Positions 37,234-58,440 of a stretch of 64,000 nucleotides of DNA are shown here, one piece after another. Origin of the DNA: Deltaproteobacteria bacterium (GTDB lineage: Bacteria > Myxococcota_A > Polyangia > Fen-1088); contig JANRKS010000028.1 in assembly GCA_033763315.1 (NCBI GenBank), positions 128,001-192,000 of the forward strand, written 5' to 3'. Made by a program: the position numbers and the translations under genes. The notes below the pieces were generated by a model that was not told the origin of the DNA, did no database searches, and saw nothing but the letters and a program-made list of their open reading frames with translations. Each line of letters starts with the position of its first letter. Positions within the stretch are counted from its first letter, which is position 1.

Positions 37234-37974
37234 CTACCGCCCGCCCAGAACGCCGATCTTGCCGAAGACGGCTTCTGGGATGCGGCGGACCAACATCATG
37301 ACGGGCCGCCAGTACCACGGAACAAAAACTTCACCGGCGCGGCCGTCGATGGCGCGCACAATGTCGCGTGCCACGCGAGGCGCTGTGGCAAACAGGACGT
37401 TCCGAGGGTGGCCCACCGTCATCGGTGAATCGGTGGGTCCAAGCTTGATGTTGGTGACGCTGACGCCGCAAGGGTAAAGCCGGCTACGTAAGCCTTGCAG
37501 ATACGTGGTGACGGCACGCTTCGACGCGCCGTACGTGAAGTTGCGGGGGCGGCCACGCTCACCCGCCACTGAAGTGATCGCAGCCAAAGCGCCCGCCCGG
37601 TTGCGCTCCATGTGGTTCGCCAGGGGCACAAGCAACGACACCACGGATATGAAATTGACGTGGATGATGCGCGCGGCTTCATTAACATCCATTTCGGACT
37701 TGAGTTGGTCGCCCAGATCGCCGTGGGCGATGAGGGCCACATCGATCCGACCCAGCTGAGCCACGGCGTCGCCAATGGTGCGCTCGTTGACCGCGAGATC
37801 GTCGAACGCTGCCACCACGGCAGCCACCACAGCGGCGCCAAGCTCAGACTTCAAGGCCAACAACTTTTCGGTGCTGCGGCCCACGAGGTAAAGCGCATCG
37901 CCCCGTGCAGCCCACAGGCGGCATGCCTCTGTGGCAACGGCGCTGGTGGCGCCCAGAACAAGAATGTTTGCCAT
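37234..37974 (-). CDS. SDR oxidoreductase, DprE2-like (copy 2)
   Basis: GATSAVA, TSVAGERGR, YGASK, IKLGPTDSPMT. Confidence 0.85.
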   Translation of the reverse strand: MANILVLGATSAVATEACRLWAARGDALYLVGRSTEKLLALKSELGAAVVAAVVAAFDDLAVNERTIGDAVAQLGRIDVALIAHGDLGDQLKSEMDVNEAARIIHVNFISVVSLLVPLANHMERNRAGALAAITSVAGERGRPRNFTYGASKRAVTTYLQGLRSRLYPCGVSVTNIKLGPTDSPMTVGHPRNVLFATAPRVARDIVRAIDGRAGEVFVPWYWRPVMMLVRRIPEAVFGKIGVLGGR

Positions 37975-37980
37975 CGTTAG

Positions 37981-38013
37981 AAGCTTGTCCTTAAAAGCTT
38001 GTCCTTAAAAGCT
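37981..38013. repeat. 14-bp tandem direct repeat (AAGCTTGTCCTTAA x2 + AAGCT)
   Basis: Read directly; spans the stop codon of one SDR and the AAGGA SD region of the next. Confidence 0.9.
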
Positions 38014-38742
38014 AATCTTCCGCATCACGAAGCGGGGCAAGCGCTTGATCACAAGCATCACCCAGCGCCACATGGGCGGCGCATAGAGCACGGGGGTGCC
38101 CCGGCTGATCGCGCGCACCACCAACTTCGCGACGCCTTCTGGCTCACCCGCAAACGGTGGCGCCTTGAGTCCGGCCGTCATGGCCGTTTTTACGAAGCCC
38201 GGTTTAACGCAGATCGTTTTGAGGCCCGCGGCGCGAAACTTAAAATCAAGGCTTTCCAAGTAATGCGAAAGTCCGGCCTTGCTGGCGCCGTAGATGGCCA
38301 CGGGCTTGCGGCCACGATCACCAGCGACCGATGAGAACACGCACAGGGTGCCGCCACCACGGCCCAGCAATCGCTTGCGGGCCGCCTCGCAAAACACCAC
38401 CGTGTTGGTGAAATTCACCAACAACACGCGGCGCGCAAAGTCCGCGTCGGCTTCAAGTTTGTCTTGCGTGGCAAACAAACCCGCGGTCACCACCACGGTG
38501 TCGAACCCATTTAGAGCAGCGTCTGCCGTTTGCAACGCAGGTTCGATGGTTTCGTGTTGTTCCAGATCGCAAACAAAGCTTGAGACTTTTCCACCTTGCC
38601 GCCGCACGGCCAAATCGACGGCGCTGCGCTCAAGGTCGTCTTTGTCGCGGCCGAGCAGCGCTATGTCATGGCCCGCCTCGAACAACTGGCGCGCCAGGGC
38701 GCGGCCCATGCCCTTGGTGCCGCCCAAAATCACGACCTTCAC
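38005..38742 (-). CDS. SDR oxidoreductase, DprE2-like (copy 1)
   Basis: GGTKGMG, SSVAGDRGR, YGASK, VKPGFVKTAMT; GTGA overlap with the upstream oxidase. Confidence 0.85.
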   Translation of the reverse strand: MKVVILGGTKGMGRALARQLFEAGHDIALLGRDKDDLERSAVDLAVRRQGGKVSSFVCDLEQHETIEPALQTADAALNGFDTVVVTAGLFATQDKLEADADFARRVLLVNFTNTVVFCEAARKRLLGRGGGTLCVFSSVAGDRGRKPVAIYGASKAGLSHYLESLDFKFRAAGLKTICVKPGFVKTAMTAGLKAPPFAGEPEGVAKLVVRAISRGTPVLYAPPMWRWVMLVIKRLPRFVMRKISF

Positions 38743-40076
38743 GGCGCCACATCTCCAAGCATGCGCACCGATTGAGCGCTTCGCAGGCGACGTTGCGGAT
38801 CCCACTTGCGGCGCACCTCTTCAAAGGCGGGCAAACGGGGCTCCATGGCCCGAAAATCTTCGGCGGTGGTGAAGTTGTCTTTCGTCAAATACATGCGACC
38901 GCCCTTTTCGATCACAAACTTGTTGAGCGCCGCCACCACTGTGGCTGTGTTGCTTCGGATCGGAAGATCCACGGCGATCGACGTGCCCGGCATGGGGAAC
39001 GACAGCAACCCTCGCCCCTGCGCGCCGCAGTCCTTGATCACGCACAGCGGAGAGGCCAAGCCGAAGCCTGTCAGCAACTCAAGAAATTGCCTTGGCGCTT
39101 GCAGGCCCGCGTGTTCCGGCAACACGCACTGGTATTGCGTGAAGCCCTTCTTACCGTAGCCGCGGTTCCAATGATGAATCGCGTCCAATGGATAAAAGAA
39201 CGAATCGGGATGGACCACGCCGCGCTTCATTTTGCGGCCGTGAACACGGTAATAAAGCTCGTTGAAGGCACGCGCGGTCAAGCGGTTCAACGCCCACGAA
39301 GGCAAGTTGAACGGCAACGACAATTTGTGCTTCTCGGGCGGCGGCGCTTTAGGAGCCTCTGCGGGCGTGGCCCAACGGCCCATCATCAAGATGCCGCGGC
39401 CCATGAGCTTTCCTCGTGAAACGCAATCGATCCAGCCCATCGTCATTGGCCACGCGGGCCCCGCTTCTTTGAGGCCGCGCAAGAAATCGTCGATGCTTGG
39501 GACTTGGCGGCTTTCCATCCAGATCCACGGCGAAGCGATGCGTTCCATGCGGAACTCCACCTCAAGAATGTGACCTGTCAGGCCCATCCCTCCGATGGTG
39601 GCGTCAAACAAGTCGGTGTTCATGGACGGCGAGCATTCAACAACGTCGTTGTTGGCCAAGCGCAACTTCATCCAGGTCACGTGCTCGCCAAAGCAGCCAT
39701 TGCGGTGGTGGTTCTTACCGTGAACGTCCGAGGCCACCATGCCCCCCACGGTCACAAATTTTGTCCCGGGTGTCACGGGCGTGAACCAACCTTGGCGCAA
39801 GAACAGCCGGTTGAGTTCGTCCAGGCAAAAGCCGGCTTCGACTTTCATCAAACCGCTGACGGTATCGAACGCAAGCACGCGATCGGCCAACGGCGTTTGC
39901 ACCACTTTATCGGTTGGGGCCGCCGGCAAAGACGAATCGCCATAGGAGCGACCTAAGCCGCGGCTTAAAGCGGCGTTGACTGTATCGCGCGCGAGGTCGT
40001 CCGAAGCCACGAGCTGGCCCACACCAACCATGCGCCCCCAACTTTCGGCAGCCAGGCCCAAGGTTTTGTCAGCCAC
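38739..40076 (-). CDS. FAD-binding oxidoreductase, DprE1-like (polyprenyl-phosphoribose 2'-oxidase)
   Basis: RGLGRSYGD, VTPGTKFVTVGG.VASDVHGKNHH, TIGGMGLTG, FFYPLD...WNRGYG..GF.QYQ, GGR.YL.KD. Confidence 0.88.
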   Translation of the reverse strand: MADKTLGLAAESWGRMVGVGQLVASDDLARDTVNAALSRGLGRSYGDSSLPAAPTDKVVQTPLADRVLAFDTVSGLMKVEAGFCLDELNRLFLRQGWFTPVTPGTKFVTVGGMVASDVHGKNHHRNGCFGEHVTWMKLRLANNDVVECSPSMNTDLFDATIGGMGLTGHILEVEFRMERIASPWIWMESRQVPSIDDFLRGLKEAGPAWPMTMGWIDCVSRGKLMGRGILMMGRWATPAEAPKAPPPEKHKLSLPFNLPSWALNRLTARAFNELYYRVHGRKMKRGVVHPDSFFYPLDAIHHWNRGYGKKGFTQYQCVLPEHAGLQAPRQFLELLTGFGLASPLCVIKDCGAQGRGLLSFPMPGTSIAVDLPIRSNTATVVAALNKFVIEKGGRMYLTKDNFTTAEDFRAMEPRLPAFEEVRRKWDPQRRLRSAQSVRMLGDVAP

Positions 40077-40719
40077 GCGGTTTGCCCCCAGGCTTGGTGT
40101 TGGTTTGATCTAACTGCTCGTAAGCGTCGGTGATCGCGCGAAACAGTCGCTCGAGCAGCGTGCGAAACATGCCCAGATTCTTGCCGTAGAAGCGATCTGG
40201 GTGCAGTTCCTTCGACGCCACAAAGTAGGCTTTCTTGAGCGCCTTGTGATCGGCCGTGGGCGACACGCCCAAGAGTTCGTGGGGCGCCAGCTTCGGCAGC
40301 AGGCGCGCCGCCCGTATGAGCCGCGTCTTTAACGTGATCTCGAGATCCGGGCCGTCGATCAAGTCGGCGGGATCGACCGCGGAGCCATCATCCAAGCGAG
40401 CCAACACGGTTTGCCCCGGCGGCACGGGCGTTTTGGGTTTTGGTGACGCGGGCGCCTGTGCGGGCGGTGGCGAGCGAGGTGTTTCACCTGGGTTGTAGAT
40501 GAGCCCCGCTTGCTTAAGCTTTCGCAGGATTTCAATTGTGCCAGCCGCGCCGAGGCCAGTGACATTGCAGATCTCAGCGTAGCTCGTGTGACCATCCACG
40601 CGAGACATCACAAACCCTTCGGTGGGTGATAGCTTTACCGCGCGCAGGTCAGCCTTGGGGTTCAACAACGGCTTGGTTTTCTTGGGGCCTAAGCCCTCGA
40701 TGTCATCCGAAGCGCTCAC
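40069..40719 (-). CDS. J-domain (DnaJ-like) protein with N-terminal winged-helix-like module
   Basis: LSPTEGFVMSRVDG module; C-terminal LLGV....LKKAY...SKELHPDRF with intact HPD; GTGA overlap with argF. Confidence 0.8.
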   Translation of the reverse strand: MSASDDIEGLGPKKTKPLLNPKADLRAVKLSPTEGFVMSRVDGHTSYAEICNVTGLGAAGTIEILRKLKQAGLIYNPGETPRSPPPAQAPASPKPKTPVPPGQTVLARLDDGSAVDPADLIDGPDLEITLKTRLIRAARLLPKLAPHELLGVSPTADHKALKKAYFVASKELHPDRFYGKNLGMFRTLLERLFRAITDAYEQLDQTNTKPGGKPRG

Positions 40720-41681
40720 GGGCGGGGTAGTAAAAATTCCAGCAACGCTTTTTGCGCGTGCAAACGGTTCTCGGCCTGGCGCCACACATGGCTTTGCGGG
40801 CCTTCGAACACTTCTTCAGTGATCTCTTCGCCCCTGTGTGCGGGCAAGCAGTGCAACACCATCGCGTTGGGTGACGCCAGCTTCATCAAAGCGCCGTCCA
40901 AACAATAACCGGCAAAATCTTTCAGGCGCTGCTCTGTTTCCGCCTCTTGCCCCATCGACGTGAACACGTCAGTGGAGATCACATCGCGGTCCGCCACCGC
41001 TTCTTTCGGATCGGAGACCACGGTGATTTTTGCAGCGGCGTTGGCGCGCGCCTTCGCCAAGATGGCGGCATCTGGTTGATAGTTCGGCGGGCAAGCCAGC
41101 ATAAGATCAAGACCAAGCAAGCCTGCCGCTTCGATCCAGCTGTTGGCCATGTTGTTGCCATCGCCAAGCCACGCATATTTGCGCGCGCTTAAGATAGCGG
41201 CCGCATCCAACGAGCCCAGGCCCACGCCGCGGGCAGCGCCAAAGTGCCCAAGCACGGTCTGCAGATCCGCCAACAGCTGGCAGGGGTGCAGAAGATCGGT
41301 GAGGCCATTGATCACAGGCACCGTCGCATACTGGGCCAACTCTTGCGCCACCTCATGACCGAACGTGCGAATCATGATCGCGTGGCAATAACCTGAAAGC
41401 ACCCGCGCCGTATCTTTGACGGGCTCACCACGGCCCAATTGCGAACCGTCACGGCCCAACACCACCGCGAAGCCCCCCAGTTCGGCGACGCCAACCTCGA
41501 AACTCACGCGCGTGCGTGTGCTGGCTTTTTCAAAAACAAGCGCCACCACGGAGCCAGGGCGCGAAGCCGCAGCCGTACGCGTGCTGCGCAAAAACCGCAG
41601 CTCTTCAGCGCGCAGGAGCAACCCGCACAGCTCATTGGCGGTGACGTCGTCAAACCCTAAGAAGTCGCGTTTAGGCGCCAT
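40716..41681 (-). CDS. argF: Ornithine carbamoyltransferase
   Basis: STRTR, HPCQ, GDGNN, SMG, HCLP, QAENR. Confidence 0.96.
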   Translation of the reverse strand: MAPKRDFLGFDDVTANELCGLLLRAEELRFLRSTRTAAASRPGSVVALVFEKASTRTRVSFEVGVAELGGFAVVLGRDGSQLGRGEPVKDTARVLSGYCHAIMIRTFGHEVAQELAQYATVPVINGLTDLLHPCQLLADLQTVLGHFGAARGVGLGSLDAAAILSARKYAWLGDGNNMANSWIEAAGLLGLDLMLACPPNYQPDAAILAKARANAAAKITVVSDPKEAVADRDVISTDVFTSMGQEAETEQRLKDFAGYCLDGALMKLASPNAMVLHCLPAHRGEEITEEVFEGPQSHVWRQAENRLHAQKALLEFLLPRP

Positions 41682-41694
41682 GAATTTTCGATCC

Positions 41695-42903
41695 TTATGA
41701 AGCGGCGCTGAGGACAGCGTTCAAAATGCCCACAGCTTCATCAATTTCAGCTTTGGTGACCAGCAACGCGGGCACGAAGCGAACCACCTTGCCGCCCGCC
41801 ACGCTTAACAACAGGCCACGTTCGCGTGCTTGCGCCACGATGGGGGCCGCGTCGCCCGCCATCACCAAACCCTGCAACAAACCCCGCCCGCGTGCGGCGG
41901 TGGTTTTCGGATAATGCGCAGCGGCCAAGCGTGCCAGTTCACCATTTAGGTAGGCGCCCATCGCTTGCACGTTCTGCAGCAGCCCCAAGTCATCAATCGC
42001 GTGTTGCACATAAAGCGCGGCCGCGCTGGCCAGCGGGTTGCCACCAAACGTTGAGGCATGCACGCCAGGCTCGAACGCACGCGACACCTCAGGTGACGCC
42101 AACATCGCCCCCATCGGCACGCCGCCGGCGATGCCTTTGGCCAGCGTGATCACGTCAGGCACCATGTTCTCTTGCTCGAACGCATAAAAGGTGCCCGTAC
42201 GGCCCACGCCTGTTTGCACTTCGTCAAAGATCAACAACGCACCGGCCGCGTCGCAGGCCTGCCGCAACTGCAACAAATAACCGGGCGGCGGGACCAAGAT
42301 GCCGCCTTCAGCCGCGATGGGCTCCACGATCACGGCGCACGTGTTCGGCCCCAGGTGTACCTTCACTGCGTCCAAGTTGCCGTAGGGCACGAACGTGACG
42401 CCGGGCACGAGAGGGCCAAAGCCTTCCCGGTATTTGGTTTGTCCCGTCACCGACAACGCGCCCATCGTGCGGCCGTGGAAACTGCCTTCAAACGCGATAA
42501 TCTCGGTCCGGTTCGGCTGCTGCTTGCAAGTCACCTGGTACCGACGCGCGATCTTGAGGGCCGCCTCGTTGGCCTCTGCGCCCGAGTTACAGAAAAACGC
42601 ACGGCCTGCAAAAGCACGCTTGGCCAAGGCCTCGGCGAACAACACCTGCGTCTCGACGTAATAAAGGTTCGAGGTGTGGATGAGGCGCGAGGCTTGGCTG
42701 GCAATGGCGTCGGCCAAGCCCCTGTGGCCGTGGCCCAAGGCACACACGGCAATGCCCGCAGTCATATCTAAATAGCGACGGCCTTCGGTGTCCCACAAAA
42801 CACAGCCTTCACCACGGCTCATCACGATGGGTGATTGCCGGTAGTTTTGCAGGAGCAGCTTTTCCGCTGCGCCGATGAGCTCTTGCGCGTGGGTGTTCGA
42901 CAT
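41695..42903 (-). CDS. argD: Acetylornithine aminotransferase
   Basis: NSGAEANE, FHGRT, DEVQTG.GRTG, AKG..GG, STFGGNP; adjacent to argF. Confidence 0.93.
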   Translation of the reverse strand: MSNTHAQELIGAAEKLLLQNYRQSPIVMSRGEGCVLWDTEGRRYLDMTAGIAVCALGHGHRGLADAIASQASRLIHTSNLYYVETQVLFAEALAKRAFAGRAFFCNSGAEANEAALKIARRYQVTCKQQPNRTEIIAFEGSFHGRTMGALSVTGQTKYREGFGPLVPGVTFVPYGNLDAVKVHLGPNTCAVIVEPIAAEGGILVPPPGYLLQLRQACDAAGALLIFDEVQTGVGRTGTFYAFEQENMVPDVITLAKGIAGGVPMGAMLASPEVSRAFEPGVHASTFGGNPLASAAALYVQHAIDDLGLLQNVQAMGAYLNGELARLAAAHYPKTTAARGRGLLQGLVMAGDAAPIVAQARERGLLLSVAGGKVVRFVPALLVTKAEIDEAVGILNAVLSAAS

Positions 42904-43009
42904 TGGAGCCCAGCAAAATACCAGAATCCGCGGCCACCGAAAGCCAACGACCACGCAACAGCTGGTTTAATGTGACCGCAAAGGTATGACCGGTGTTGTG
43001 CAGAGCCGG

Positions 43010-43018
43010 TGCTAGACT
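43010..43018 (+). promoter_or_regulatory. Extended -10 element (TGcTAGACT), likely leaderless ECF transcript
   Basis: 7 nt before GTG 43026; no SD. Confidence 0.5.
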
Positions 43019-43025
43019 TGGGCAA

Positions 43026-43622
43026 GTGGCCGCGACGCTTAGCCGCAAAGAGGTGGAAGCGCTGTTCCGCACCTATGGACCATTGGTGCGGCGGCGGGCG
43101 CGCAGCATCTTAGGCAATGATTCCGAAGCCGACGACGCCACCTCGGAAGTGTTCGTCAAGGTCTTGTTGCGCCTCGATGATTTTCGGGGTGAGAGCCAGC
43201 CATCCACGTGGCTTTACCGCATCACCACCAATTTGTGCCTAAACCGCATCCGGGACGAAAAGCGGCACCGCGCCCGTCTCGAAGAGCTGGGGGAGGCCAG
43301 GCAAGCCCACATCGCCGCTGAGCGGCCGGCCACCGGTGGGCCCGAAGGCCGCCTGGCGCTGCAGGTGTTGTTGCAGACGATCCCAGCCGATCTGGCAGAG
43401 GTCGCGGTGTACTACCATGTGGACGGCATGGAGCAGGAGGAGATTGCCGCTGTGATGGGCGTGGCGCGCCGAACCATAGGATATCGTTTGGAAAGATTCC
43501 GCGAGGAGGCTCGCAAACACCTTGGCATGGACGCGCTTGGTGATGGCTTCAAACAATCTATATCTTCGGTTGATCCCGTTGCCGTGGATCCACCGCTTGG
43601 GGGTCCAAAGCCCCAGGAATAG
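43026..43622 (+). CDS. ECF RNA polymerase sigma factor
   Basis: Region 2 ADDATSEVF...FRGES..STWLYRI..N.C.N..R; region 4 GM...EIA..MGV.RRT. Confidence 0.92.
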   Translation: MAATLSRKEVEALFRTYGPLVRRRARSILGNDSEADDATSEVFVKVLLRLDDFRGESQPSTWLYRITTNLCLNRIRDEKRHRARLEELGEARQAHIAAERPATGGPEGRLALQVLLQTIPADLAEVAVYYHVDGMEQEEIAAVMGVARRTIGYRLERFREEARKHLGMDALGDGFKQSISSVDPVAVDPPLGGPKPQE

Positions 43623-43629
43623 CTGGCAC

Positions 43630-44436
43630 ATGCAAACGAAGAACGAAGCCGCAGGGGGGGCACGTCGGGTGGGGCGCGAATGCCTTTCGGACTTGCAGCT
43701 CGACCAGATGGAGCTGGGAGAGTTGGATGGCGTGACGAACGATCGCGCCCGCTTGCACCTGGCCCAGTGTGGCGTGTGCAAAGAAGCGTGGGAAGCCCTG
43801 GTGGCCGACCGACGCGCGTTCGCCGAAGCGGTGGACGTGCCTCGTGTGGCGGCGCGCATCGTGGCCACAGCTTATCCTTCGGGTGGTCGGGTAAAACGCT
43901 GGTTGCGCGGTCTGGCTTTGCCCGCAGCTTTGGCCGCCGCGGCGGCTTCGGCGCTTGTGTTGTTGGCGCAGCCGCTCAAACTCGCACCCACAGAACGCAT
44001 CAAAGGTGGAGCAGGCGCGGTGACCTTGGCCACATACGTAAAGTACGCGGGTCATGAACAACCCGGCAGCCTTTATATGGGGGAGCCACTGAGGGTGGGC
44101 GACCGTGTGCAGTTTCGGATCAGCACGGCCGCGCCGGGACATCTGGCGATCCTTTCGATTGATGGCCGGGGCGATGTGTCCGTGTTCTACCCGTCAGGTT
44201 CCACCACGGCGTCGGTGGGTGCTGGCAAGGATCAGCCGCTTGGCAACGCTGTGGAGCTCGACGAAAGCGAAGGCACGGAGACGGTTGTGGCGTTGTTGTG
44301 TGAAGCCGAACGTCCGCTGGCCGATCTCGTCACAGCGGCGCGCAAGGCGGCCACACAAGGCGCGGTGCCGGCGCCCTTGCACACAGGTTGCGTGGAAACA
44401 CGCACAACACTGACGAAAGCGACGCCGTCGCGCTGA
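43630..44436 (+). CDS. Zinc anti-sigma factor (ZAS) with TM helix and periplasmic DUF4384-like domain
   Basis: C...HLAQCGVC zinc motif, one TM, then ERIKGG and L..GD.V.F....G.L.I..ID..G.V...YP. Confidence 0.82.
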   Translation: MQTKNEAAGGARRVGRECLSDLQLDQMELGELDGVTNDRARLHLAQCGVCKEAWEALVADRRAFAEAVDVPRVAARIVATAYPSGGRVKRWLRGLALPAALAAAAASALVLLAQPLKLAPTERIKGGAGAVTLATYVKYAGHEQPGSLYMGEPLRVGDRVQFRISTAAPGHLAILSIDGRGDVSVFYPSGSTTASVGAGKDQPLGNAVELDESEGTETVVALLCEAERPLADLVTAARKAATQGAVPAPLHTGCVETRTTLTKATPSR

Positions 44437-44452
44437 CCGCGGCCGCGCTAAC

Positions 44453-46063
44453 ATGAAGGCTGTGGTTGCTCGCCTGACCCGTCGCTGCCTTGTTCTGCTC
44501 GCGTTCGCGCTGGCGTGGGGCAGGATGCAACCCGCTCATGGGGCCGTGCAACGTTACGCTCTGTTGATCGGCGTTAACGAAGGCCACGCACAAGATCCCC
44601 GTCTGCAGTTCGCTGAATCCGACGTAGACAATGTGGCGCAAACGCTGGAAGCGGTGGGCGGCTTTCGCAGCGATCGCATCGTGCGGCTGAAAAATGCGAC
44701 GGCTGAACAAACGCGCAACGCTGTCGTCGACTTGAACCTCTTGATCCAGCGCGACGTCAACGCAGGCACCGAAGCGGTGTTGTTCGTGTATTTTTCGGGC
44801 CACGGCGCCGGGGGCGAGCTGCACATGCGCGGCACCACGCTGGCCACGGAAGAGTTATCGAAGCTCGTGAAGCTTTCGGCGGCGAAGCTCAAGCTTTTGA
44901 TGCTGGACGCGTGCCGCGCGGGGTCGCTCACGCGGGTCAAAGGCGGGCGGCAAGTGGCCCCATTTCAGATCGGCATGGCGGAGCAGCTGCGCAACGAAGG
45001 CTTCGCCATCATCACGTCTTCAGCAGCGGGTGAAGACGCCCAAGAATCCGATACGTTGCAGTCATCGGTGTTCACGCATCACTTCTTGGGCGGCCTGCGC
45101 GGCTTGGCCGATGCCAACCGGGACGGCCTTGTGACCTTGGGTGAAGCTTATGGCTACGCCTATGCGCAATCGTTGCGCAGCTCGATGACAACGGTCGTTG
45201 GTTCGCAACACGCCACGTTCGATTACGACTTGCGCGGCCGCGCCGATCCCGTGTTGGCGAATCTCAATGCCGCGCACGCTGAGGCCGAGCTGGTGTTGCG
45301 CGATCCGGGGGATTACTTGATCGCGCCCGCGTCGGGCCCTGGCGCCTTGGTGGAGGCACACGCCACCGAAAACAATACGCGTTTGCGCTTACCGGCGGGA
45401 ACCTATGGCGTTCGCATGCGTACGCCTCGCCGCATCTTGCAAACGGATGTGGCGCTGACCGCAGCCCACAGCACATGGCTCACCGCGGACGAGATGACCG
45501 CATTGCCGCCGGCTTTGGCCGTTCGCAAAGGCGAAGTGGCGGCCACGCTCGTGCATGGCCCTTCGCTGGCTGGATCGATGCACGGGCCGGTGGCCAATGG
45601 TTTTTCCTCGACGGTGGGGGCTCAACTCGGATGGGCGTTCGAGTTTCCCAGCATAACGGTGATGCCACGCTTCGGTTTGGGACGCGCCGAGCCCGTTCGT
45701 TTGCCGGAGCAGATCCTATCGCATGAGCTCACCGAGTTGAGCCTCGATGTGGCCGCGCTTTATGTGTTTGATCTGGCGGGCGTGTCCGTGGCGCCGCTGG
45801 CGGCCCTCGGCTCGGCTATGTTCTCGCAAACGATCGAACGCCTGGATGGCAGCACCACCGCGCGGCCGTGGGCGTTGATGACCAGCGTCGGTGCCTGGGC
45901 CAACTGGCCGCTGGCCAAAGGCTTTTCGCTTGAAACCAGCGCTGAATTGGCGGCGTTCTTCGTACGTCGGCAAAGCGAAAATAACGCCGCCGGCGTAACG
46001 TCAACGCCGCAGTCCGGCTCGGCCACGTATCGCGTGTCCGTGGGTTTAGGCTACCGGTACTAA
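44453..46063 (+). CDS. Exported caspase-like (peptidase C14) protein with C-terminal beta-barrel
   Basis: Signal peptide; RYALLIG.N, YFSGHG (H117), LDACR (C154), AQES, S.FTH; amphipathic beta-strands ending VGLGYRY. Confidence 0.88.
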   Translation: MKAVVARLTRRCLVLLAFALAWGRMQPAHGAVQRYALLIGVNEGHAQDPRLQFAESDVDNVAQTLEAVGGFRSDRIVRLKNATAEQTRNAVVDLNLLIQRDVNAGTEAVLFVYFSGHGAGGELHMRGTTLATEELSKLVKLSAAKLKLLMLDACRAGSLTRVKGGRQVAPFQIGMAEQLRNEGFAIITSSAAGEDAQESDTLQSSVFTHHFLGGLRGLADANRDGLVTLGEAYGYAYAQSLRSSMTTVVGSQHATFDYDLRGRADPVLANLNAAHAEAELVLRDPGDYLIAPASGPGALVEAHATENNTRLRLPAGTYGVRMRTPRRILQTDVALTAAHSTWLTADEMTALPPALAVRKGEVAATLVHGPSLAGSMHGPVANGFSSTVGAQLGWAFEFPSITVMPRFGLGRAEPVRLPEQILSHELTELSLDVAALYVFDLAGVSVAPLAALGSAMFSQTIERLDGSTTARPWALMTSVGAWANWPLAKGFSLETSAELAAFFVRRQSENNAAGVTSTPQSGSATYRVSVGLGYRY

Positions 46064-46095: not shown

Positions 46096-47373
<1,278 letters not shown>

Positions 47374-47440: not shown

Positions 47441-50400
47441 ATGGCCTCTGTTTGGCAAGCGTTAGGGCGTTTCTTTCGAGCGATCTTTGGGCAATGGCAA
47501 CCACCACCGTGGGCCGTGTTTCTGGGCAACAAAACCCGGCAAGGCGGACGGTGGGCGACGCAACACAAGCGCGCTTCTGCGGTTTCATTGCTGCTGTTGA
47601 TCGGCCTCGGTGCGGGTGGCTTCTTCGGCTATCGCGCTTGGAAGAGCCGTCCGCAACCCGAGCTTGTGCAAGTGTCGCTCAACCCGCCCGGCCTCACGGT
47701 GTTGCAAGAACATCTGCAGCCCCAGCCCTTGACGGTTGAGTTCGAAAGATCCGTCGCGCCATTGGCCGCGGTCGATAAAGTTCTGAAGGCCGGCGTGGCC
47801 CTTTCACCACGCGTGCCGGGCACGTGGAAGTGGATCTCGGATCGCCAGCTCGCGTTTACGCCAAAAACCGATTGGCCCGTGGGGCAAGAAATCGCGGTCA
47901 CCTTTGACAAGAAGGGCTTCGTCGCTCCGCACATCAAGCTCAAAGAATACCAACTGACGTTCAAGACGGCGCCCTTCGAGGTGCAGCTTGAACAAAGTGA
48001 GTTCTACCAAGATCCTGCCAACCCCTCATTGAAGAAGGCTGTGGCGACCTTTGCTTTCAGTCACGCCGTAAACACAGACACCTTTGCTCAGAACCTCAAG
48101 CTCACGTTCGAACCCTCGAACAAGGAAGAAGCTGCGTTCGCACCCGCCTTTCACATCACATACGACAAGCTAAAGGGCAAAGCGTTCGTGCACTCGGATC
48201 CGTTGCCGGTGCCCCAGAAGGACGCGACCGTGGTGTTGACGCTCAAACCAGGCACACGTGCGGCGGCCGGGGGGCCTGGCAAAGACACAGAGGTGGTGGG
48301 CCGCGTGGCAGTGCCCGGCCTCTACAACTTCTTTCGCATCGCAAACGTCTACACGCAGGTGGTGGACAACCCGCGCATGGAGCCAGAACAGATCTTGTTC
48401 TTCGACACTTCGACCGGCGTGGCCAACAAAGAACTGACCGCGAACATCGAGGTGTGGACCTTGCCCGTCTACCACCCCACCGAACAAACGACACCCGAGA
48501 GCCGCAGCTCGCCTTACCGCTGGAGCAGCCCCGAAATGATCTCGCCCGCCATCTTAAAGGGCGGCCAGAAGTTGAAGCTGCAAGCCTTGCCTACGGTGCG
48601 GGAGTACGATGTGCAGCACACTTACCGGCACGAAGCGCCGATCGGTCGCTTTCTTTATGTGCAAGTGAAGAAGGGCGTCAAAGCGTTCGGCGGCTACCTG
48701 TTGGGCGACACGCAGACCTTCATCGTGGAGGTGCCGCCCTTTCCTCGCCAGTTGAAGATCATGCACTCAGGCGCGCTGTTGGCCAGCAGCGGTGATCGCA
48801 AAGTCAGCGTTTTCACGCGCGACGTGCCGCAAATCAAATTGCAGGTCGCACGCATTTTGCCGTCACAGATCCAGCATCTGGTGGCGAGGAGCCATGGCTC
48901 GTTCGCGCAACCGTCATTCTCGTGGGATTTCGATCTCGAGAACATGGCGCAGTTTCAAGATGAGACGCGCACGTTGGCGCAAACCCCAGGAAAACCTGTG
49001 TATGAGACGTTGGATCTGACGCCCTATTTGCCCAAAGAGGGTCCGCGCCGCGGGCTGTTTCACATCAAAGTGCAAAGCTGGAAAGACAGCTACGCGCTGG
49101 GAGAATCAGATGAGCGCTTCATCTTGCTTTCGGATCTGGGCGTGTTCGTCAAGCGCACCGTATCGGGTACGCGAAGTGTGTTTGTGCAGAGCATCGCGGC
49201 GGGCACGCCTGTGGCGGACGCGCAGGTGGAAGTGCTCGGCAAAAACGGCATGGTGGTGGCGCGCGCGCGCACGGGGGCCGATGGCAAAGCCGAACTTGCG
49301 AACCTCGAATCGCTGCGCGCGGAAAAGTCACCGGTGCTTGTGCTCGTGAACGCCGGCAACGACACTTCATTTTTGCCGTGGGACCGCCGCGATCGCGAGA
49401 TGGACGTGTCGCGCTTTGACGTGGGCGGCGTGGCTGAAAGCGAAGAGGCCGGCAAATTGGCCGCGTACGGTTTCTCAGATCGCACGCTTTACCGCCCGCA
49501 AGAAACGTTTCACGTGGGCTTCATCGTGCGCAGCCAAGACTGGGCGGCCAACTACAACGGCTTGCCGTTGGTGGCCACAATCACCGATCCACGCGGCATG
49601 GAGGTCAAAAGTGAACCGGTGACGTTGGACGCCTCGGGCTTCGCGGCGATTGATTACACCACAAGGTACACGGCACCCACGGGCAGCTATGCGGTAAACC
49701 TTTATCTGGTGAAAAAGGGCGTGCCCAGCGATCTGCTGGGCTCCACCACGGTGCAGGTACGCGAATTCTTGCCGGATCGAATGACCATCAAGGTTGAATT
49801 GACGAAACAGAACACCGGCGGCTGGACCACCGCACAGGATCTGGATGCCAAGGTAACGCTGACAAATCTTTACGGCACGCCCGCATCGAACAAACGCGTG
49901 GTGACGCGGATTTCCCTTACACCTGGGATTCCAAGTGTGCGCGGCATGCCGGGCTTTCGGTTCTACGATCCATTGAAGCCAAACGATCCGGTGCAAGAGA
50001 CACTGGCCGCGGAACACACGAACGATGACGGAACTGCCGAGATTAAACTGAACCTGCAGCGCTTTGCGCCCGCCACGTACCGCTTGAGCGTGATGGCCGA
50101 AGGCTTTGAGGGCGAAGGCGGACGCAGCGTGGCCGCCGAGGCGACAACGTTCGTGTCGCCTTTGCCTTACATGATTGGCTACAAAACCGAAGGCGACCTT
50201 TCCTACTTGCACATGGGCTCGGCGCAAGTCGTGCTGCTCGCAGCGGCCTCGCCCGAAGGCGAGCGGATGAGCGTGGGTGGCCTGACGCAAGTGCTCCTGG
50301 AACGAACGTACGTCTCTGCTTTGGTGAAGCAAGCGAACGGCACATACCGCTATGAATCCGTGGGCAAGGATGTGGAACGCTCGCGCAAGCCCTTGCAGTT

Positions 50401-53296
50401 CAGCAAGGCTGACACGGCTGTGACCTTGCCCACCGACAAACCGGGCACATTCTTTCTCACGGTGCAAAACGCCGAAGGGCTGGAGCTGCAGCGCGTGCCG
50501 TTCACCGTGGCCGGCCAAGCCAATCTGGCACGAACAATGGATCGCATCACCGAACTGCAGCTTTCGCTGGCCAATGCCAGCGTAGACCCAGGCGCGCCTT
50601 TGGAAGTGCAGATCAAAGCGCCGTACGCGGGCTCGGGGCTCATCACGATCGAACGCGATCGCGTGTATGCACACAAATGGTTTCACACAGACACCACGGG
50701 CACCATTGAGAAGATCGACGTGCCCGCGGGGTTGGAAGCCGGTGGGTATGTTTCAGTGGCGATGATTCGGGATGCGGCCTCTGCCGATGTGTTCGTAAGC
50801 CCGTTGTCTTATGGAATCGTTCCGTTTTCAATTAGCCGCGATCAGCGGCGCATCAACGTCAAAGTGGACGCGCCCGCGTTAGCGAAGCCAGGCGTGGTCA
50901 TGAAGCTCAACGTCACGGCCGACAAGCCTGGGCGCGCCGTGGTGTTCGCCGTGGATGAAGGCATCTTGCGCGTGGCCAAACATCCCAACCCGGATCCATT
51001 GGGTCACTTTCTGCAAAAGCGGCAACTGGGCGTTTCCACAACTCAGATCCTAGATCTCATTCTGCCCGAGCATCGCTTATTGATGCAGGCGCTTGCCCCT
51101 GGTGGTGGCGACGAAGCGGATGCCAGCGCTTTGGGTGCCAATTTAAACCCTTTCAAACGCAAGCAAGACATCCCCGCGGTGTATTGGTCGGGCCTGGTGG
51201 ATGTGGGGCCGCAAGCCAAAGAACTAAGCTTCTTGGTGCCGGATAGTTTCGCGGGCACGTTGCGCGTGATGGCCGTGGCCGCGAATGCCAGCGCCGTGGG
51301 TGCCTATGTGGGGCAAAGCTTGGTGCGCGGCGATTTTGTGATCAGCCCCAACGTACCTACGTTCGTCGCACCCGGCGATATGTTCGACGTGCCAGTGACG
51401 GTGGCCAACAACGTGGAGGGTTCAGGCAAAGCCGCCAACGTGACGTTAACGCTGCAAACCACGCCGCATGTTGAAGTTGTGGGCAGCGCCAAAGCCTCCC
51501 TCACCGTGGGCGAATTGCATGAAGCGGCCACCACTTTCAAGCTGCGCGCCAAAGACACACTGGGCTCGGCAGGGCTGACGTGGAAGGCCACGCTTGGCAA
51601 AGCGTTTGGGCAACGCCGGGTGGATGTCAGCGTGCGGCCCGCGGCGCCCTTCCTATCGACTTTGAATGTTGGGTATCTGAAAAACGGCAGCAAGAAGGTG
51701 CCCGTGCAGCGGCAGCTTTATGGTGCCTTTCGCACGTTGCAGACGGGGCTATCACCCGTGCCCACCACGCTGTCTTCGGGGTTGGCACGCTACTTGGAGA
51801 AATTCCCGCACGGATGCACCGAGCAGATCAGCAGCCAAGCGGTGCCAGCGCTTGTGATGGCAAGCCCGGGGGGCGGCAGTGCACCGCCCGTGGACGCCGC
51901 CAACGCGGTATCACGCTTCACCGAGCTGGTGGCCACACGGCAGAACGATGAAGGCGGCTTCGGCTTGTGGGTCGCAACCCCGAACGCGGCACCGCTGGCC
52001 AGCGTTTACACAATGCTTGTGTTAACCGAGGCCAAAGATCGTGGCTTTCCCGTCGCTGCGCGCGTGATGGACAACGGCCTGCGGTACTTGGAAACCGTGG
52101 CAGACGCCACACCTGATGATCTTGCGGGCGCGCGCCTGCGTACGATGGCGATCTATGTACTGACCCGCAACGCGGTGGTGACCACACGGTACGCGTCGGC
52201 GGCACAAAAACACATGGAGGCCAATTACGCCAAGGCGTGGCGTGACGATCCCGCGGCAGCCTATTTGGCGGGCGCATACGCCCTTTTGCAAGATCAGGCC
52301 TTGGCTGAAAAGCTGAGCCAACCTCTGGCGCTGGGACGCGATCGGCAACCCGATTACGCCGCTTACTACGACAACATGGCGCACGACGCGCAGGTGCTCT
52401 ACGTCTTGGCCAAGCACTTCGCACCGCAAGCGGCGAAGCTGCCCTCCAGCGCGCTTGAGGGGATGTTGCGTATGATTGAGAAAGGCGCCTACAACACCTT
52501 CTCGTCGGCGTTCTCCATTTTGGCGTTGGATAGTTACGCTCGCGCAGGCGCGGCCGCCAGTGGTGGCCAACGCAGTGTCGCGCAATGGTTGGCGGGCAAG
52601 GCGGAGCCGCTCGCGTTGCCGCAAACCGCGGGCGCGATGATCGATTTTTCGCCCAAGGCAAGCGCGTTGGAGTTTAACGTGACGGGTGATTTCGGTGCCT
52701 ACTTCGTCGTCAGCCAACAAGGCTTTGATCAGGTGCTGCCCACCAAGCCGCGCGCGGAGAAAGTGGAAGTGTTCCGCGAGTACATCGGCAAGGACAACGC
52801 GACGCTCACACAGGTGGCCGCGGGTGATGAGATCCGCGTGCGTTTGCGCGCGCGCAGCCTCGACGGTTACATTCCCAATGCGGCCATCATCGATCTGCTG
52901 CCCGGAGGCTTCGAGGTCGTGATCCAAAGCGCGTCGTCCGGCACAGCTGACAACGACAACACGGGTGACCAGGGCGAAGCCGAAGGTGATGCTGAAGGCA
53001 ACGACGAAAGCAACGGCGGCGACGAGGCACCACCTGAAACGCCCGCCAGCGGATTCGGGGTGCCCATCGCCATGCCCGGATCTGATCTGCCCCTGGCCTA
53101 CGGCGACGTGCGCGAGGATCGAGTTGTGTTGTACGCCGATCTTGGCCCTGACGCGCACACGTTCATCTACACGATCAAGGCCACGAACACTGGCGACTAT
53201 GTGGTGCCGCCCATCTTGGCCGAATCGCTTTACGATCGCGCGGTGCGCGCCGTGGGCGTCCCTGGCAAGATGACCGTGCAAGCGCCCAAACAATAA
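47441..53296 (+). CDS. Bacterial alpha-2-macroglobulin (YfhM-like)
   Basis: 1951 aa; N-terminal TM, FSDR..YRP MG motif, thioester CTEQ, DLLPGGFE, REDRV; followed by pbpC. Confidence 0.93.
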   Translation: MASVWQALGRFFRAIFGQWQPPPWAVFLGNKTRQGGRWATQHKRASAVSLLLLIGLGAGGFFGYRAWKSRPQPELVQVSLNPPGLTVLQEHLQPQPLTVEFERSVAPLAAVDKVLKAGVALSPRVPGTWKWISDRQLAFTPKTDWPVGQEIAVTFDKKGFVAPHIKLKEYQLTFKTAPFEVQLEQSEFYQDPANPSLKKAVATFAFSHAVNTDTFAQNLKLTFEPSNKEEAAFAPAFHITYDKLKGKAFVHSDPLPVPQKDATVVLTLKPGTRAAAGGPGKDTEVVGRVAVPGLYNFFRIANVYTQVVDNPRMEPEQILFFDTSTGVANKELTANIEVWTLPVYHPTEQTTPESRSSPYRWSSPEMISPAILKGGQKLKLQALPTVREYDVQHTYRHEAPIGRFLYVQVKKGVKAFGGYLLGDTQTFIVEVPPFPRQLKIMHSGALLASSGDRKVSVFTRDVPQIKLQVARILPSQIQHLVARSHGSFAQPSFSWDFDLENMAQFQDETRTLAQTPGKPVYETLDLTPYLPKEGPRRGLFHIKVQSWKDSYALGESDERFILLSDLGVFVKRTVSGTRSVFVQSIAAGTPVADAQVEVLGKNGMVVARARTGADGKAELANLESLRAEKSPVLVLVNAGNDTSFLPWDRRDREMDVSRFDVGGVAESEEAGKLAAYGFSDRTLYRPQETFHVGFIVRSQDWAANYNGLPLVATITDPRGMEVKSEPVTLDASGFAAIDYTTRYTAPTGSYAVNLYLVKKGVPSDLLGSTTVQVREFLPDRMTIKVELTKQNTGGWTTAQDLDAKVTLTNLYGTPASNKRVVTRISLTPGIPSVRGMPGFRFYDPLKPNDPVQETLAAEHTNDDGTAEIKLNLQRFAPATYRLSVMAEGFEGEGGRSVAAEATTFVSPLPYMIGYKTEGDLSYLHMGSAQVVLLAAASPEGERMSVGGLTQVLLERTYVSALVKQANGTYRYESVGKDVERSRKPLQFSKADTAVTLPTDKPGTFFLTVQNAEGLELQRVPFTVAGQANLARTMDRITELQLSLANASVDPGAPLEVQIKAPYAGSGLITIERDRVYAHKWFHTDTTGTIEKIDVPAGLEAGGYVSVAMIRDAASADVFVSPLSYGIVPFSISRDQRRINVKVDAPALAKPGVVMKLNVTADKPGRAVVFAVDEGILRVAKHPNPDPLGHFLQKRQLGVSTTQILDLILPEHRLLMQALAPGGGDEADASALGANLNPFKRKQDIPAVYWSGLVDVGPQAKELSFLVPDSFAGTLRVMAVAANASAVGAYVGQSLVRGDFVISPNVPTFVAPGDMFDVPVTVANNVEGSGKAANVTLTLQTTPHVEVVGSAKASLTVGELHEAATTFKLRAKDTLGSAGLTWKATLGKAFGQRRVDVSVRPAAPFLSTLNVGYLKNGSKKVPVQRQLYGAFRTLQTGLSPVPTTLSSGLARYLEKFPHGCTEQISSQAVPALVMASPGGGSAPPVDAANAVSRFTELVATRQNDEGGFGLWVATPNAAPLASVYTMLVLTEAKDRGFPVAARVMDNGLRYLETVADATPDDLAGARLRTMAIYVLTRNAVVTTRYASAAQKHMEANYAKAWRDDPAAAYLAGAYALLQDQALAEKLSQPLALGRDRQPDYAAYYDNMAHDAQVLYVLAKHFAPQAAKLPSSALEGMLRMIEKGAYNTFSSAFSILALDSYARAGAAASGGQRSVAQWLAGKAEPLALPQTAGAMIDFSPKASALEFNVTGDFGAYFVVSQQGFDQVLPTKPRAEKVEVFREYIGKDNATLTQVAAGDEIRVRLRARSLDGYIPNAAIIDLLPGGFEVVIQSASSGTADNDNTGDQGEAEGDAEGNDESNGGDEAPPETPASGFGVPIAMPGSDLPLAYGDVREDRVVLYADLGPDAHTFIYTIKATNTGDYVVPPILAESLYDRAVRAVGVPGKMTVQAPKQ

Positions 53297-56634: not shown

Positions 56635-58440
56635 ATGTCTTTGCTTAAACGTGTTCTAGGGGTTGCCGCTTGCCTTGGCTTGGTGGTGGCGTGCACAGTA
56701 AGCGCAGACGGCATTACTCCGCAGGGCACGCCAGGCAATGACGCGTCCGCCATCGAAAACGACAGCGGCGCGGTGGGTACCGGTGGAACAGCGGGAATGG
56801 GCAGCGCCACAGGCGGCACCAACGTCGCTGGCACAAGCGGAACAGGCGGCAGCGCCATGATGCCGTCATCCTGCGCCAGTGGCTCCACAAAGTGCGACGA
56901 CGGCAACGTCTTGCTGTGTTCACCGAAACGCAGCTGGGAGATGGTTCAGACGTGCACCTATGTTTGTTCTGAAGGCGCGTGCGCTGGAGATTGCACGCCC
57001 GGCGACAAACGCTGCGCAGGGTTCGTCCCGCAATTGTGCGATACGACGGGTCAGTGGAAGACAGGCCAAGCCTGCGACAAGGTTTGTTTGTCTGGCCGAT
57101 GCACCGGCGATTGTTCACCTGGATCTCGCCGCTGCCTGAACAACGCGACGCAGATTTGCGACGTGACCGGCACATGGAAGGCTGACAAAGCGTGCGCCAA
57201 TGGCTGCACCAACGGATTGTGTGAAGGTGAGTGCACGGAAGGCCAAAAGACTTGTAACGGGATGGACGCCCTGGTTTGCGGCTCAGGCCAAGCCTGGACA
57301 AAACAAACCACGTGTCCGTTCCTTTGCGACGACGGCATTTGCGCGGGTCAATGCAAACCAGGCAGCAGAGACTGCGCCGGCAAATCACCTCGCGTATGCA
57401 ACGCCGCCGGCGTCTGGGTGCAAGAGGCCGCCTGCGAGTTCGCCTGCAGCGCGGGTGTTTGCAGCGGCGAATGTGTTCCCACGAGCAAGCGGTGCAACGG
57501 CCTCAAACCTTCCACATGCAACGCCGAGGGCCGTTGGGTGGACGCGGCGGCTTGCCCTTTCACGTGCAACGCCGGTGCGTGCGGTGGCACATGTGCGCCC
57601 GGCGAAACGCGTTGCGAAGGCAACGCCGCACAGTCTTGCGGAACGGATGGCAATTTCAAAACCGTTTCAACATGTCCCTTCGTGTGCGTCGACGGTCAAT
57701 GCCAAGGCGAATGCGTGCCAGGCCAAAAATCGTGCAATGGCCAAACACCGCGCACCTGCAACAGCGCTGGCGGCTGGCAAAACAGCACAGCTTGCCCGAT
57801 CCTCTGCAGCGCGGGCGTTTGCACAGGCACCTGCACACCGGGCACGCGCGAGTGTAATGGCGACACGTCTTCGGTCTGCACGGGCAATGGCTCGTGGCAG
57901 GTGGAAGCCACGTGCCCCTTTGTTTGCGCTCAAGGTAAGTGTGGCGGCTCATGCAAACCAGGAAAGCAGGAGTGCTCGGGCAGCACGCCGCAAACTTGCA
58001 ACATGGCGGGACAGTGGGAAACCGGCGCGGCCTGTTCCTTGGCCTGCATCGACGGCAAGTGCGGCGGCAATTGTAAGCCGGGCGAAACGCGTTGTGCGAA
58101 CGGCAAGGTCGAGACCTGTTCAAGCACAGGCGAGTGGGGCGCGGGCCAAACCTGTTCGTACCTGTGCCTCGGCAAGGCCTGTGCGGGAGAATGTGTGCCG
58201 GGCGACCGCGATTGCAGCGGCAAGACACCGCGGGTGTGCAGCGAGGCAGGCAAGTGGACCGCGCAAGGCACGTGCGCCGGCGCGTGCAGCAATGGCAGGT
58301 GCAGCGAATGCGTGCCTGGTGACTTCGTGTGCAGCCCCAACGGCCGGGGGGCCTTGTGTTCCCCGCAAGGCGTCTGGGGTGAAGAGGGCTGCATCGAACC
58401 CTGCGGCTACACGAAATCGTGCAAAAAGAAGGACAAGTGA
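56635..58440 (+). CDS. Cys-rich repeat lipoprotein (13 x ~40 aa, 6 Cys per repeat)
   Basis: Lipobox VVAC, Gly/Thr linker, tandem C-x6-C-x7-C-x5-W-x5-C-x3-C-x4-C repeats. Confidence 0.88.
   Translation: MSLLKRVLGVAACLGLVVACTVSADGITPQGTPGNDASAIENDSGAVGTGGTAGMGSATGGTNVAGTSGTGGSAMMPSSCASGSTKCDDGNVLLCSPKRSWEMVQTCTYVCSEGACAGDCTPGDKRCAGFVPQLCDTTGQWKTGQACDKVCLSGRCTGDCSPGSRRCLNNATQICDVTGTWKADKACANGCTNGLCEGECTEGQKTCNGMDALVCGSGQAWTKQTTCPFLCDDGICAGQCKPGSRDCAGKSPRVCNAAGVWVQEAACEFACSAGVCSGECVPTSKRCNGLKPSTCNAEGRWVDAAACPFTCNAGACGGTCAPGETRCEGNAAQSCGTDGNFKTVSTCPFVCVDGQCQGECVPGQKSCNGQTPRTCNSAGGWQNSTACPILCSAGVCTGTCTPGTRECNGDTSSVCTGNGSWQVEATCPFVCAQGKCGGSCKPGKQECSGSTPQTCNMAGQWETGAACSLACIDGKCGGNCKPGETRCANGKVETCSSTGEWGAGQTCSYLCLGKACAGECVPGDRDCSGKTPRVCSEAGKWTAQGTCAGACSNGRCSECVPGDFVCSPNGRGALCSPQGVWGEEGCIEPCGYTKSCKKKDK
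56872..58425 (+). repeat. 120-bp-period coding repeat array (diverged)
   Basis: 11 units of exactly 40 aa, one of 39 aa, and one degenerate terminal unit. Confidence 0.9.

Follow-up and report, generated by a model that had tools for sequence, protein, structure and literature searches.

The triad locus and its products

We analysed a stretch of 64,000 nucleotides from a Deltaproteobacteria bacterium (assembly GCA_033763315.1, contig JANRKS010000028.1, positions 128,001 to 192,000; hereafter the window). At positions 43026 to 46063 it carries three genes for a sigma factor of the extracytoplasmic function (ECF) type, a candidate anti-sigma factor and a caspase fused to a predicted outer-membrane barrel. 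An initial annotation, made from the letters alone, had proposed that this triad is a trans-envelope signalling system in which the anchored caspase is the dedicated site-1 protease of the anti-sigma factor. The three open reading frames (ORFs) are co-oriented and separated by 7 bp and then 16 bp; ORFs, gaps and motifs were all as first described. The features of the locus, apart from three motif sites given further on, are:

43026..43622, +, ECF sigma gene, 198 residues (Pfam and NCBIfam)
43630..44436, +, anti-sigma candidate gene, 268 residues: zinc motif, one transmembrane helix, predicted periplasmic immunoglobulin (Ig)-like DUF4384 domain
44453..46063, +, caspase-barrel fusion gene, predicted exported, 536 residues (Pfam, AlphaFold2 model, fold comparison)
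43010..43018, +, TG-n-TAGACT, extended -10 element of the primary-sigma type, 7 nt upstream of the GTG start
43681..43779, +, zinc motif of the anti-sigma candidate, C18...H43-x3-C47-x2-C50
43912..43968, +, transmembrane helix, single hydrophobic segment (residues 95-113)
44020..44418, +, predicted periplasmic beta-sandwich (DUF4384), residues 131-263 (model)
44453..44542, +, Sec-type signal peptide, cleavage after about residue 30 (inspection and conservation)
44546..45262, +, caspase-fold domain with H117/C154 dyad and acidic pocket residues D57, D152 and E198
45110..45145, +, acidic loop resembling an EF-hand (D220-E231), possible Ca2+ site
45284..45481, +, beta-sandwich linker, residues 278-343 (AlphaFold2 model)
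45551..46060, +, eight-stranded OmpA/NspA-type barrel, predicted outer-membrane, terminal Tyr

The first product matched Sigma70_r2 (E 3.8e-19) and Sigma70_r4_2 (E 2e-07), both above the Pfam cut-offs, and showed no region 3 match. Regions 2 and 4 only, in about 200 residues, identify it as an ECF (group 4) sigma factor, in agreement with the first assignment. Its GTG start at 43026 is supported by the -10 hexamer 7 nt upstream. A TAnnnT-type hexamer was found 6-7 nt before the GTG in 8 of 9 non-redundant close orthologues, the window included; over all loci the same geometry occurred in 13 of 88, versus 2-5 at control distances. This pattern suggests a housekeeping, leaderless promoter for the triad in the window's clade. 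A gapped k-mer search of the 88 upstream regions revealed no convincing autoregulatory ECF promoter, and a consensus promoter scan found no site.

The second product has the anatomy of a zinc-binding anti-sigma (ZAS) protein: a C/H...HxxxCxxC motif (H43, C47, C50) precedes a single transmembrane helix in a protein encoded at +1 of an ECF sigma gene. C18 is the likely fourth zinc ligand, and the His and two Cys are conserved at 0.85, 0.86 and 0.86 (131-132 alignment rows). The zf-HC2 Pfam model scored below its cut-off (15.4 bits versus 22.2, E 0.02); DUF4384 matched residues 154-223 above its own (E 1.3e-07). The predicted structure comprises cytoplasmic helices (21-81), a helix at 90-112, a linker modelled with low confidence (114-124) and a beta-sandwich (131-263), for which a fold search returned generic Ig-like matches only (best Z 8.8). 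The anatomy first described held. No specific NCBIfam model exceeded its cut-off for this protein or for the caspase-barrel protein.

The third product matched Peptidase_C14 (PF00656; E 1.5e-14, 54.7 bits versus a cut-off of 21.4). An AlphaFold2 model built from a 113-row alignment (predicted local distance difference test (pLDDT) 89, predicted template-modelling score (pTM) 0.84) shows an N-terminal signal helix, a caspase domain (32-270), a beta-sandwich (278-343), a short helix (353-358) and an eight-stranded barrel (367-534). By inspection and conservation, 110 of 112 homologues have an A-x-A-like signal peptidase site; export by the twin-arginine (Tat) pathway was rejected, a Tat-like motif occurring in only 3 of the 112. 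The best Foldseek match of the model was MALT1, followed by Ail, NspA and OmpA. With VIA-align, the model superposed on the metacaspase AtMC4 with Z 20.8 (root-mean-square deviation 2.9, 210 aligned), and its barrel on NspA with Z 17.1 (2.7, 151 aligned), on OprF with Z 16.3 and on OmpA with Z 16.0. The eight strands are amphipathic and the C-terminus is aromatic in this predicted model, which is the barrel that the initial annotation had anticipated.

The N-termini of OmpA-type barrels are periplasmic, and such barrels are too small to let a passenger through. The caspase should thus face the periplasm, like the DUF4384 domain, a topology on which the initial proposal also depended. The order seen here, passenger, linker and barrel, with a cut motif preceding the barrel, would also suit an autotransporter-like protein, its caspase displayed on or shed from the surface to act on neighbours or prey. 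We consider this highly improbable: autotransporter (type V) barrels have 12 strands, whereas the modelled barrel has 8 in about 170 residues and matches OmpA/NspA, and the partner motif described below lies on an inner-membrane protein.

Of 144 caspase loci, 139 homologues remained after removal of 4 duplicates and of 1 in which no catalytic Cys was aligned; all 139 have H117, D152, C154 and E198. The dyad is intact, as had been claimed for the window protein. Position 57 is Asp in 134 and Glu in 5 of these homologues and is aligned to the 'ND' Asp of metacaspases; S115 is present in 126. In AtMC4, D137 (Cys-2), S84 (His-2) and D352 hold Lys225, which blocks the active site until Ca2+-dependent self-cleavage (PMC7206013). 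D152 likewise lies at Cys-2, as does AtMC4 D137, while E198 was matched to D352 by eye only. An acidic S1 pocket suited to Arg/Lys is present in the caspase domain, which, judged by this alignment, retains the pocket of the Lys/Arg-cutting metacaspases. In the EF-hand-like loop, D220, D224 and E231 are kept in 137, 133 and 138 of the 139 homologues, and the strict pattern in 78.

The barrel varies far more than the enzyme. Identity to the window protein over the homologues was 0.46 for the caspase, 0.26 for the sandwich and 0.22 for the barrel; six paralogues of the window genome shared 0.43 in the caspase and 0.17 in the barrel, and their barrels were pairwise 10-29% identical. In close orthologues, three of the four predicted outer loops were the least conserved segments, variable outer loops being usual for outer-membrane proteins in general.

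Conservation and distribution of the triad

Relatives were collected by a scan of genome contigs, and the triad counts refer to the best 80 of at least 560. Sigma and anti-sigma genes were both found upstream of the caspase in 73 of these 80 loci; 70 of the 80 have 1.9 kb of flank or more, and 67 of those carry the pair directly upstream. Further loci gave both partners in 27 of 29 cases, four of them duplicating the first set. Chance would fall far short of 67 in 70; the triad is real, conserved and abundant. The initial annotation had named lack of conservation as grounds for abandoning the proposal, and the triad recurs even within the window genome, in 10 copies. This genome encodes 11 related caspases (10 found by Pfam, one more by phmmer), of which 10 lie behind a sigma and an anti-sigma gene and one stands alone. 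The lone caspase-barrel gene is L156 (G000:C6:182198-183793), and the genome also has a lone sigma/anti-sigma pair, L157 (G000:C24:7607-9267). Activation between the two in trans is possible; their nearest neighbours gave no support to treating them as one split system.

The orthologue of the window's own triad was present in 10 of 24 genomes of the same family and in none of 16 other genomes of the class; the triad was complete in 10 of 10. Across the phylum, the caspase profile matched 62 of 151 sampled genomes (E 1e-20). Strong anti-sigma matches (E up to 2e-19) were found in 64, namely all 62 caspase genomes and two more, one with a divergent caspase next door and the other with a sigma-anti-sigma fusion. 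The fusion (L158 1351-3045, minus strand) is one ORF with an ECF sigma part, a zinc motif, a transmembrane helix and a DUF4384-like domain; no caspase was found in the locus, nor in its genome at E 1e-20. Outside this sample, the anti-sigma profile matched 4,098 clusters at 50% identity (E up to 1e-30). Record titles of the relatives were mostly Myxococcota among the matches listed, and loci of Archangium, Pyxidicoccus, Sorangium and Polyangium carry the triad.

A shared [K/R]-G motif and a proposed mechanism

The same short basic motif was found at three sites of the window triad:

43996..44010, +, R123-I-K125-G-G in the anti-sigma linker between transmembrane helix and DUF4384, proposed site-1 cut site
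44933..44947, +, R161-V-K163-G-G in the loop past the catalytic Cys, proposed activating self-cleavage site
45524..45532, +, R358-K359-G360 directly before the barrel, proposed release or auto-inhibition site

We counted the motif in alignments, permitting a one-residue shift. [K/R]-G stands nine residues past the catalytic Cys in 133 of the 139 caspases, and immediately before the C-terminal anchor in 130. In the linker past the transmembrane helix it was found in 122 of the 131 anti-sigmas detected; K/R followed by G, A, S or T was found in 130, the single miss being cut by a contig end. Its K/R (0.99) and G (0.93) are the most conserved anti-sigma columns, exceeding the zinc ligands. The K163 loop is poorly ordered in the model (pLDDT <50 at residues 162-175). 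An alignment-free count gave the same picture: [KR]G occurs within 40 residues past the transmembrane helix in 116 of 117 triad anti-sigmas (120 minus 3 without a clear helix), versus 7 of 27 other sigma partners in the window genome (the transmembrane partners of its other 63 sigma hits), and the stricter R-x-[KR]-G in 83 of 117 versus 0 of 27. Among top anti-sigma representatives, 148 of 149 carry [KR]G, though the search profile itself selects for the motif. The exception is P0135, an anti-sigma-like protein of 758 residues with no [KR]G past the transmembrane helix; its N-terminal part is duplicated, and it has several tandem DUF4384-like domains, none of which is preceded by the motif. 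Because the motif lies outside the Pfam domain and is missing from this tandem-repeat protein, it is probably separate from the DUF4384 fold.

An acidic pocket goes together with Lys/Arg-Gly at three places, namely the enzyme's loop, its anchor and the linker of the neighbouring protein, and the simplest reading is that of a Lys/Arg-cutting enzyme. The pocket and the shared basic P1 residue speak for the site-1 protease first suggested, a role that we infer. On balance, we favour TonB-independent trans-envelope signalling by regulated intramembrane proteolysis, in which the system's own caspase would be both receptor and site-1 protease. The operon would be expressed from a housekeeping leaderless promoter and the anti-sigma would keep the sigma factor at the inner membrane. 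The barrel would sit in the outer membrane with the caspase zymogen on its periplasmic side, possibly with K359 or K163 in its own pocket. A cue at the variable barrel, or from a partner lipoprotein where present, would activate the caspase, perhaps with Ca2+, and the enzyme would then cut itself past K163 (activation) and past K359 (release from the anchor). Next, it would cut the anti-sigma past K125, about 12 residues outside the transmembrane helix, removing the DUF4384 domain. Finally, an RseP-type protease would cut the remaining stub and free the sigma factor; the window genome encodes two full-length M50 (RseP-family) proteases.

The release step matters in this scheme because K125 lies only about 12 residues from the inner membrane, and a tethered enzyme would have to span the width of the periplasm with two small domains. 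The tethered caspase would probably not reach K125, and the mechanism is likely to include release at K359; here the initial annotation, which had the anchored caspase act directly, probably fell short. A reading that needs no release step is that the barrel is a substrate of the beta-barrel assembly machinery (BAM) rather than a receptor, and that the system works as a sentinel for the assembly of outer-membrane proteins: precursor left untethered by failed assembly would cut the anti-sigma. Such a sensor would fit a constitutive leaderless promoter and a poorly conserved barrel, and would be analogous to the sensing of outer-membrane proteins by DegS (PMC7826278). Nevertheless, ten paralogues per genome, with barrels as dissimilar as those of the six compared, suggest different inputs, and the junction motif is kept in nearly all homologues, so that we give this reading little credence.

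The anchor that follows the junction motif appears to be swappable and is the least conserved part: a barrel, repeats plus a barrel, or a helical hairpin. In the paralogue L154 (G000:C9:342175-344442), short Gly/Asn-rich repeats lie between the junction motif and a barrel-like C-terminal part. The Arg-type caspases of L126-L128, L130, L137, L139, L143-L145, L148 and L149 are anchored by two hydrophobic helices rather than a barrel, often accompanied by a last beta-strand. More tentatively, with the chances somewhat below even, we suggest a large class of receptor-proteases, in which an outer-membrane barrel of exchangeable surface specificity bears a caspase zymogen that, when triggered, releases itself, crosses the periplasm and cuts its cognate anti-sigma where the self-cleavage motif is repeated. 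If so, a caspase cascade would serve as a trans-envelope wire, with about ten parallel channels per myxobacterial genome.

Several observations weigh against the mechanism that we favour. The lone sigma/anti-sigma pair of the window genome keeps the motif without an adjacent caspase. A second control consisted of 30 loci from genomes without a strong caspase match, 27 of them with a transmembrane helix, and is impure, 5 lying beside a divergent caspase; [KR]G was found in 10 of the 27 and, after removal of four with an adjacent caspase, in 8 of 23 without one, 5 of the 8 forming one orthologous group. The K359 region is well ordered (pLDDT 96 at residues 351-360), unlike a typical exposed cut site. 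One clade, 6 of the 139 caspases, lacks both self-motifs, so self-cleavage is not universal. Many caspases of the Arg clade are hairpin-anchored and keep the junction motif though release is perhaps unneeded there, and the motif may thus serve auto-inhibition rather than release. Last, loop and anti-sigma have the same residue, K or R, in 119 of 127 loci (101/5/3/18, Fisher p 1e-14, raw counts), but this co-variation was not significant with phylogenetically independent pairs, and we set it aside as proof. On the tree, the loop switches state only 4 times. Arg predominates among the anti-sigmas of each of the three lineages with a loop Arg, and it has also appeared, five times, in anti-sigmas whose caspase loop has Lys. 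A complex prediction for caspase 28-365 with anti-sigma 114-268 scored 0.01 and is evidence neither way. The six caspases without self-motifs are those of L132, L135, L136, L138, L140 and L142; three appear to be lipoproteins, with KG just past the lipid-anchor Cys. Three anti-sigmas of this clade were detected, and all keep KG.

The ordered junction would also fit motifs that are pseudo-substrates, the anti-sigma linker and the junction docking in the pocket and holding the protease off without any signalling cut. The caspase would then be the output, acting on envelope proteins such as downstream lipoproteins. AtMC4 indeed inhibits itself by a Lys held in its pocket, and an ATG-started ORF directly follows the caspase gene in 61 of the 128 loci with room for one, 40 of the 61 being lipobox-like and 27 belonging to one family (e.g. 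L015 from about 5560, whose member has no NCBIfam match). Yet no such lipoprotein is encoded downstream of the window triad, nor of most of its closest orthologues. The dyad is intact throughout, and the anti-sigma motif is placed where removal of the periplasmic domain would license RseP. We consider the pseudo-substrate explanation unlikely.

To our knowledge, most bacterial caspase homologues have no known substrate. The window system names a candidate substrate, a residue (K125), self-cuts (K163 and K359) and a transcriptional read-out. If signalling by regulated intramembrane proteolysis is correct, it would connect the outer membrane to an ECF sigma factor without TonB, by a route used in a family whose anti-sigmas form about 4,100 clusters at 50% identity, and bacterial caspases would gain a signalling job across the cell envelope. 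Myxococcus xanthus, a tractable organism, has four operons of the same order, which makes the role of myxobacterial caspases directly testable.

Related systems and neighbouring genes

The system probably works like regulated intramembrane proteolysis combined with cell-surface signalling. In FecA/FecR/FecI, an outer-membrane protein, an inner-membrane anti-sigma and an ECF sigma form one unit, and the triad has the same three components. Unlike Fec, it involves no TonB-dependent receptor or FecR domain (no Pfam match to FecR at E 0.1 in the triad proteins, and a barrel of 8 strands), and the outer-membrane protein itself bears the protease. RseA/DegS/RseP differs in that its site-1 enzyme is an inner-membrane HtrA and not, as proposed here, a co-encoded outer-membrane cysteine protease. 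The logic that we infer, two-step proteolysis of a single-pass anti-sigma, is the same (PMC7826278).

The closest mechanistic precedent is DdvS/DdvA of M. xanthus, with an ECF sigma factor, a zinc-motif single-helix anti-sigma and a caspase-fold protease proposed to act on the periplasmic linker, followed by RseP; autoproteolysis of DdvA was proposed and RseP dependence shown, M. xanthus RseP degrading truncated ZAS DdvA (PMC11506125, PMC6061681). In DdvA, the protease is a TPR-CHAT domain fused to the anti-sigma. The window system instead has a C14 protease encoded apart from the anti-sigma and carried on a predicted outer-membrane barrel, no defence island is involved, and the 268-residue anti-sigma has DUF4384 only, with no TPR-CHAT. 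In type III-E CRISPR systems, the caspase-fold protease Csx29 cuts Csx30, which binds the sigma factor RpoE, between its sigma-binding part and its C-terminal domain, DUF4384 in one Csx30 group (bioRxiv 10.1101/2022.08.17.504292). That system is cytoplasmic, TPR-CHAT-based, RNA-triggered and CRISPR-linked (same source), whereas the window protease is C14 and not CHAT. The triad belongs to none of the Ddv, Fec and type III-E systems. AtMC4 and MALT1 share its fold, dyad and acidic pocket, and AtMC4 self-cleaves after Lys (PMC7206013); both are eukaryotic and cytosolic, with no barrel and no sigma link.

These precedents raise the question of an anti-phage or death module, in which the barrel would be a phage or competitor decoy and the caspase would trigger defence genes or cell death. 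DdvS/DdvA controls a CRISPR island that also holds a cyclic-oligonucleotide-based antiphage signalling system (CBASS; PMC11506125, PMC6061681), some Csx30 proteins carry DUF4384 (10.1101/2022.08.17.504292), and the barrels are highly variable. In contrast, no CRISPR array was seen among the 20 largest of at least 60 direct-repeat families of the 64-kb window, Cas7-11 not having been searched separately, which agrees with the initial annotation's statement that no CRISPR locus lies nearby. PADLOC returned a generic partial caspase match only, and in 7 of 9 close relatives the orthologue adjoins the housekeeping gene argD and not an island. We judge a defence role improbable; it is compatible with the favoured mechanism and differs only in the signal.

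As for earlier descriptions, the initial annotation knew of no characterised system with this exact architecture. It needs one correction, since the gene order has been known since 2012: Asplund-Samuelsson et al. described sigma-70/metacaspase operons, four in M. xanthus DK1622 and others of the same structure in Anaeromyxobacter, Haliangium, Sorangium, Ralstonia and Fibrobacter, comprising an ECF sigma, a hypothetical protein (with a transmembrane segment in some), a metacaspase and often a lipoprotein (PMC3501461). We matched them by gene order alone. In the parts of that paper cited, the middle genes (MXAN_4950, 6682, 7215 and 7455) are not called anti-sigma, and no barrel, motif or mechanism is given. 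A full-text literature search, whose coverage left out most subscription papers, found no description of the caspase-barrel fusion, the shared motif or the mechanism, which are new as far as this search shows. For twelve M. xanthus locus tags, it retrieved MXAN_7214 in a mutant list and MXAN_7454 and MXAN_4951 incidentally. By its anti-sigma features only (+1 position, single transmembrane helix, zinc domain and/or DUF4384), the window system fits group ECF25, whose +1 anti-sigmas mostly have these traits and which includes Deltaproteobacteria and Fibrobacteres; a caspase goes unmentioned in the supplement text concerned (Casas-Pastor et al. 2021, PMC7826278). Kaur et al. 2021 linked ECF sigmas to EACC2-caspase systems and proposed autopeptidase activation, and the relevant part of a review (PMC8999054) places only CHAT proteins near ECF54.

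Divergent from the triad lie genes for an aminotransferase class III and an ornithine carbamoyltransferase (40716-42954, minus strand), which we take to be argD and argF. Beyond them, 40069-40785 (minus strand) encodes a 238-residue protein with a weak winged-helix match and a C-terminal DnaJ domain (Pfam), and 37234-40076 (minus strand) holds, presumably from the translations only, a FAD-oxidase-like gene and two short-chain-dehydrogenase-like genes. On the other side, 46096-47373 (plus strand) starts 32 bp past the caspase gene and encodes an exported protein of 425 residues, which has a single CxxCH and matches nothing in Pfam or NCBIfam; clusters of look-alikes are unnamed or 'putative cytochrome c' and are commonest in Verrucomicrobiota, Planctomycetota and Acidobacteriota. 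Two genes 3' of the caspase gene lies a bacterial alpha-2-macroglobulin, a protease trap (47441-53296, plus strand; Pfam). Both were rejected as parts of the system: blastp found no match in any other locus, and none up to 8.5 kb downstream in a same-genus genome. Further along, 57377-58247 contains degenerate direct repeats spaced 120-240 nt, probably a protein repeat.

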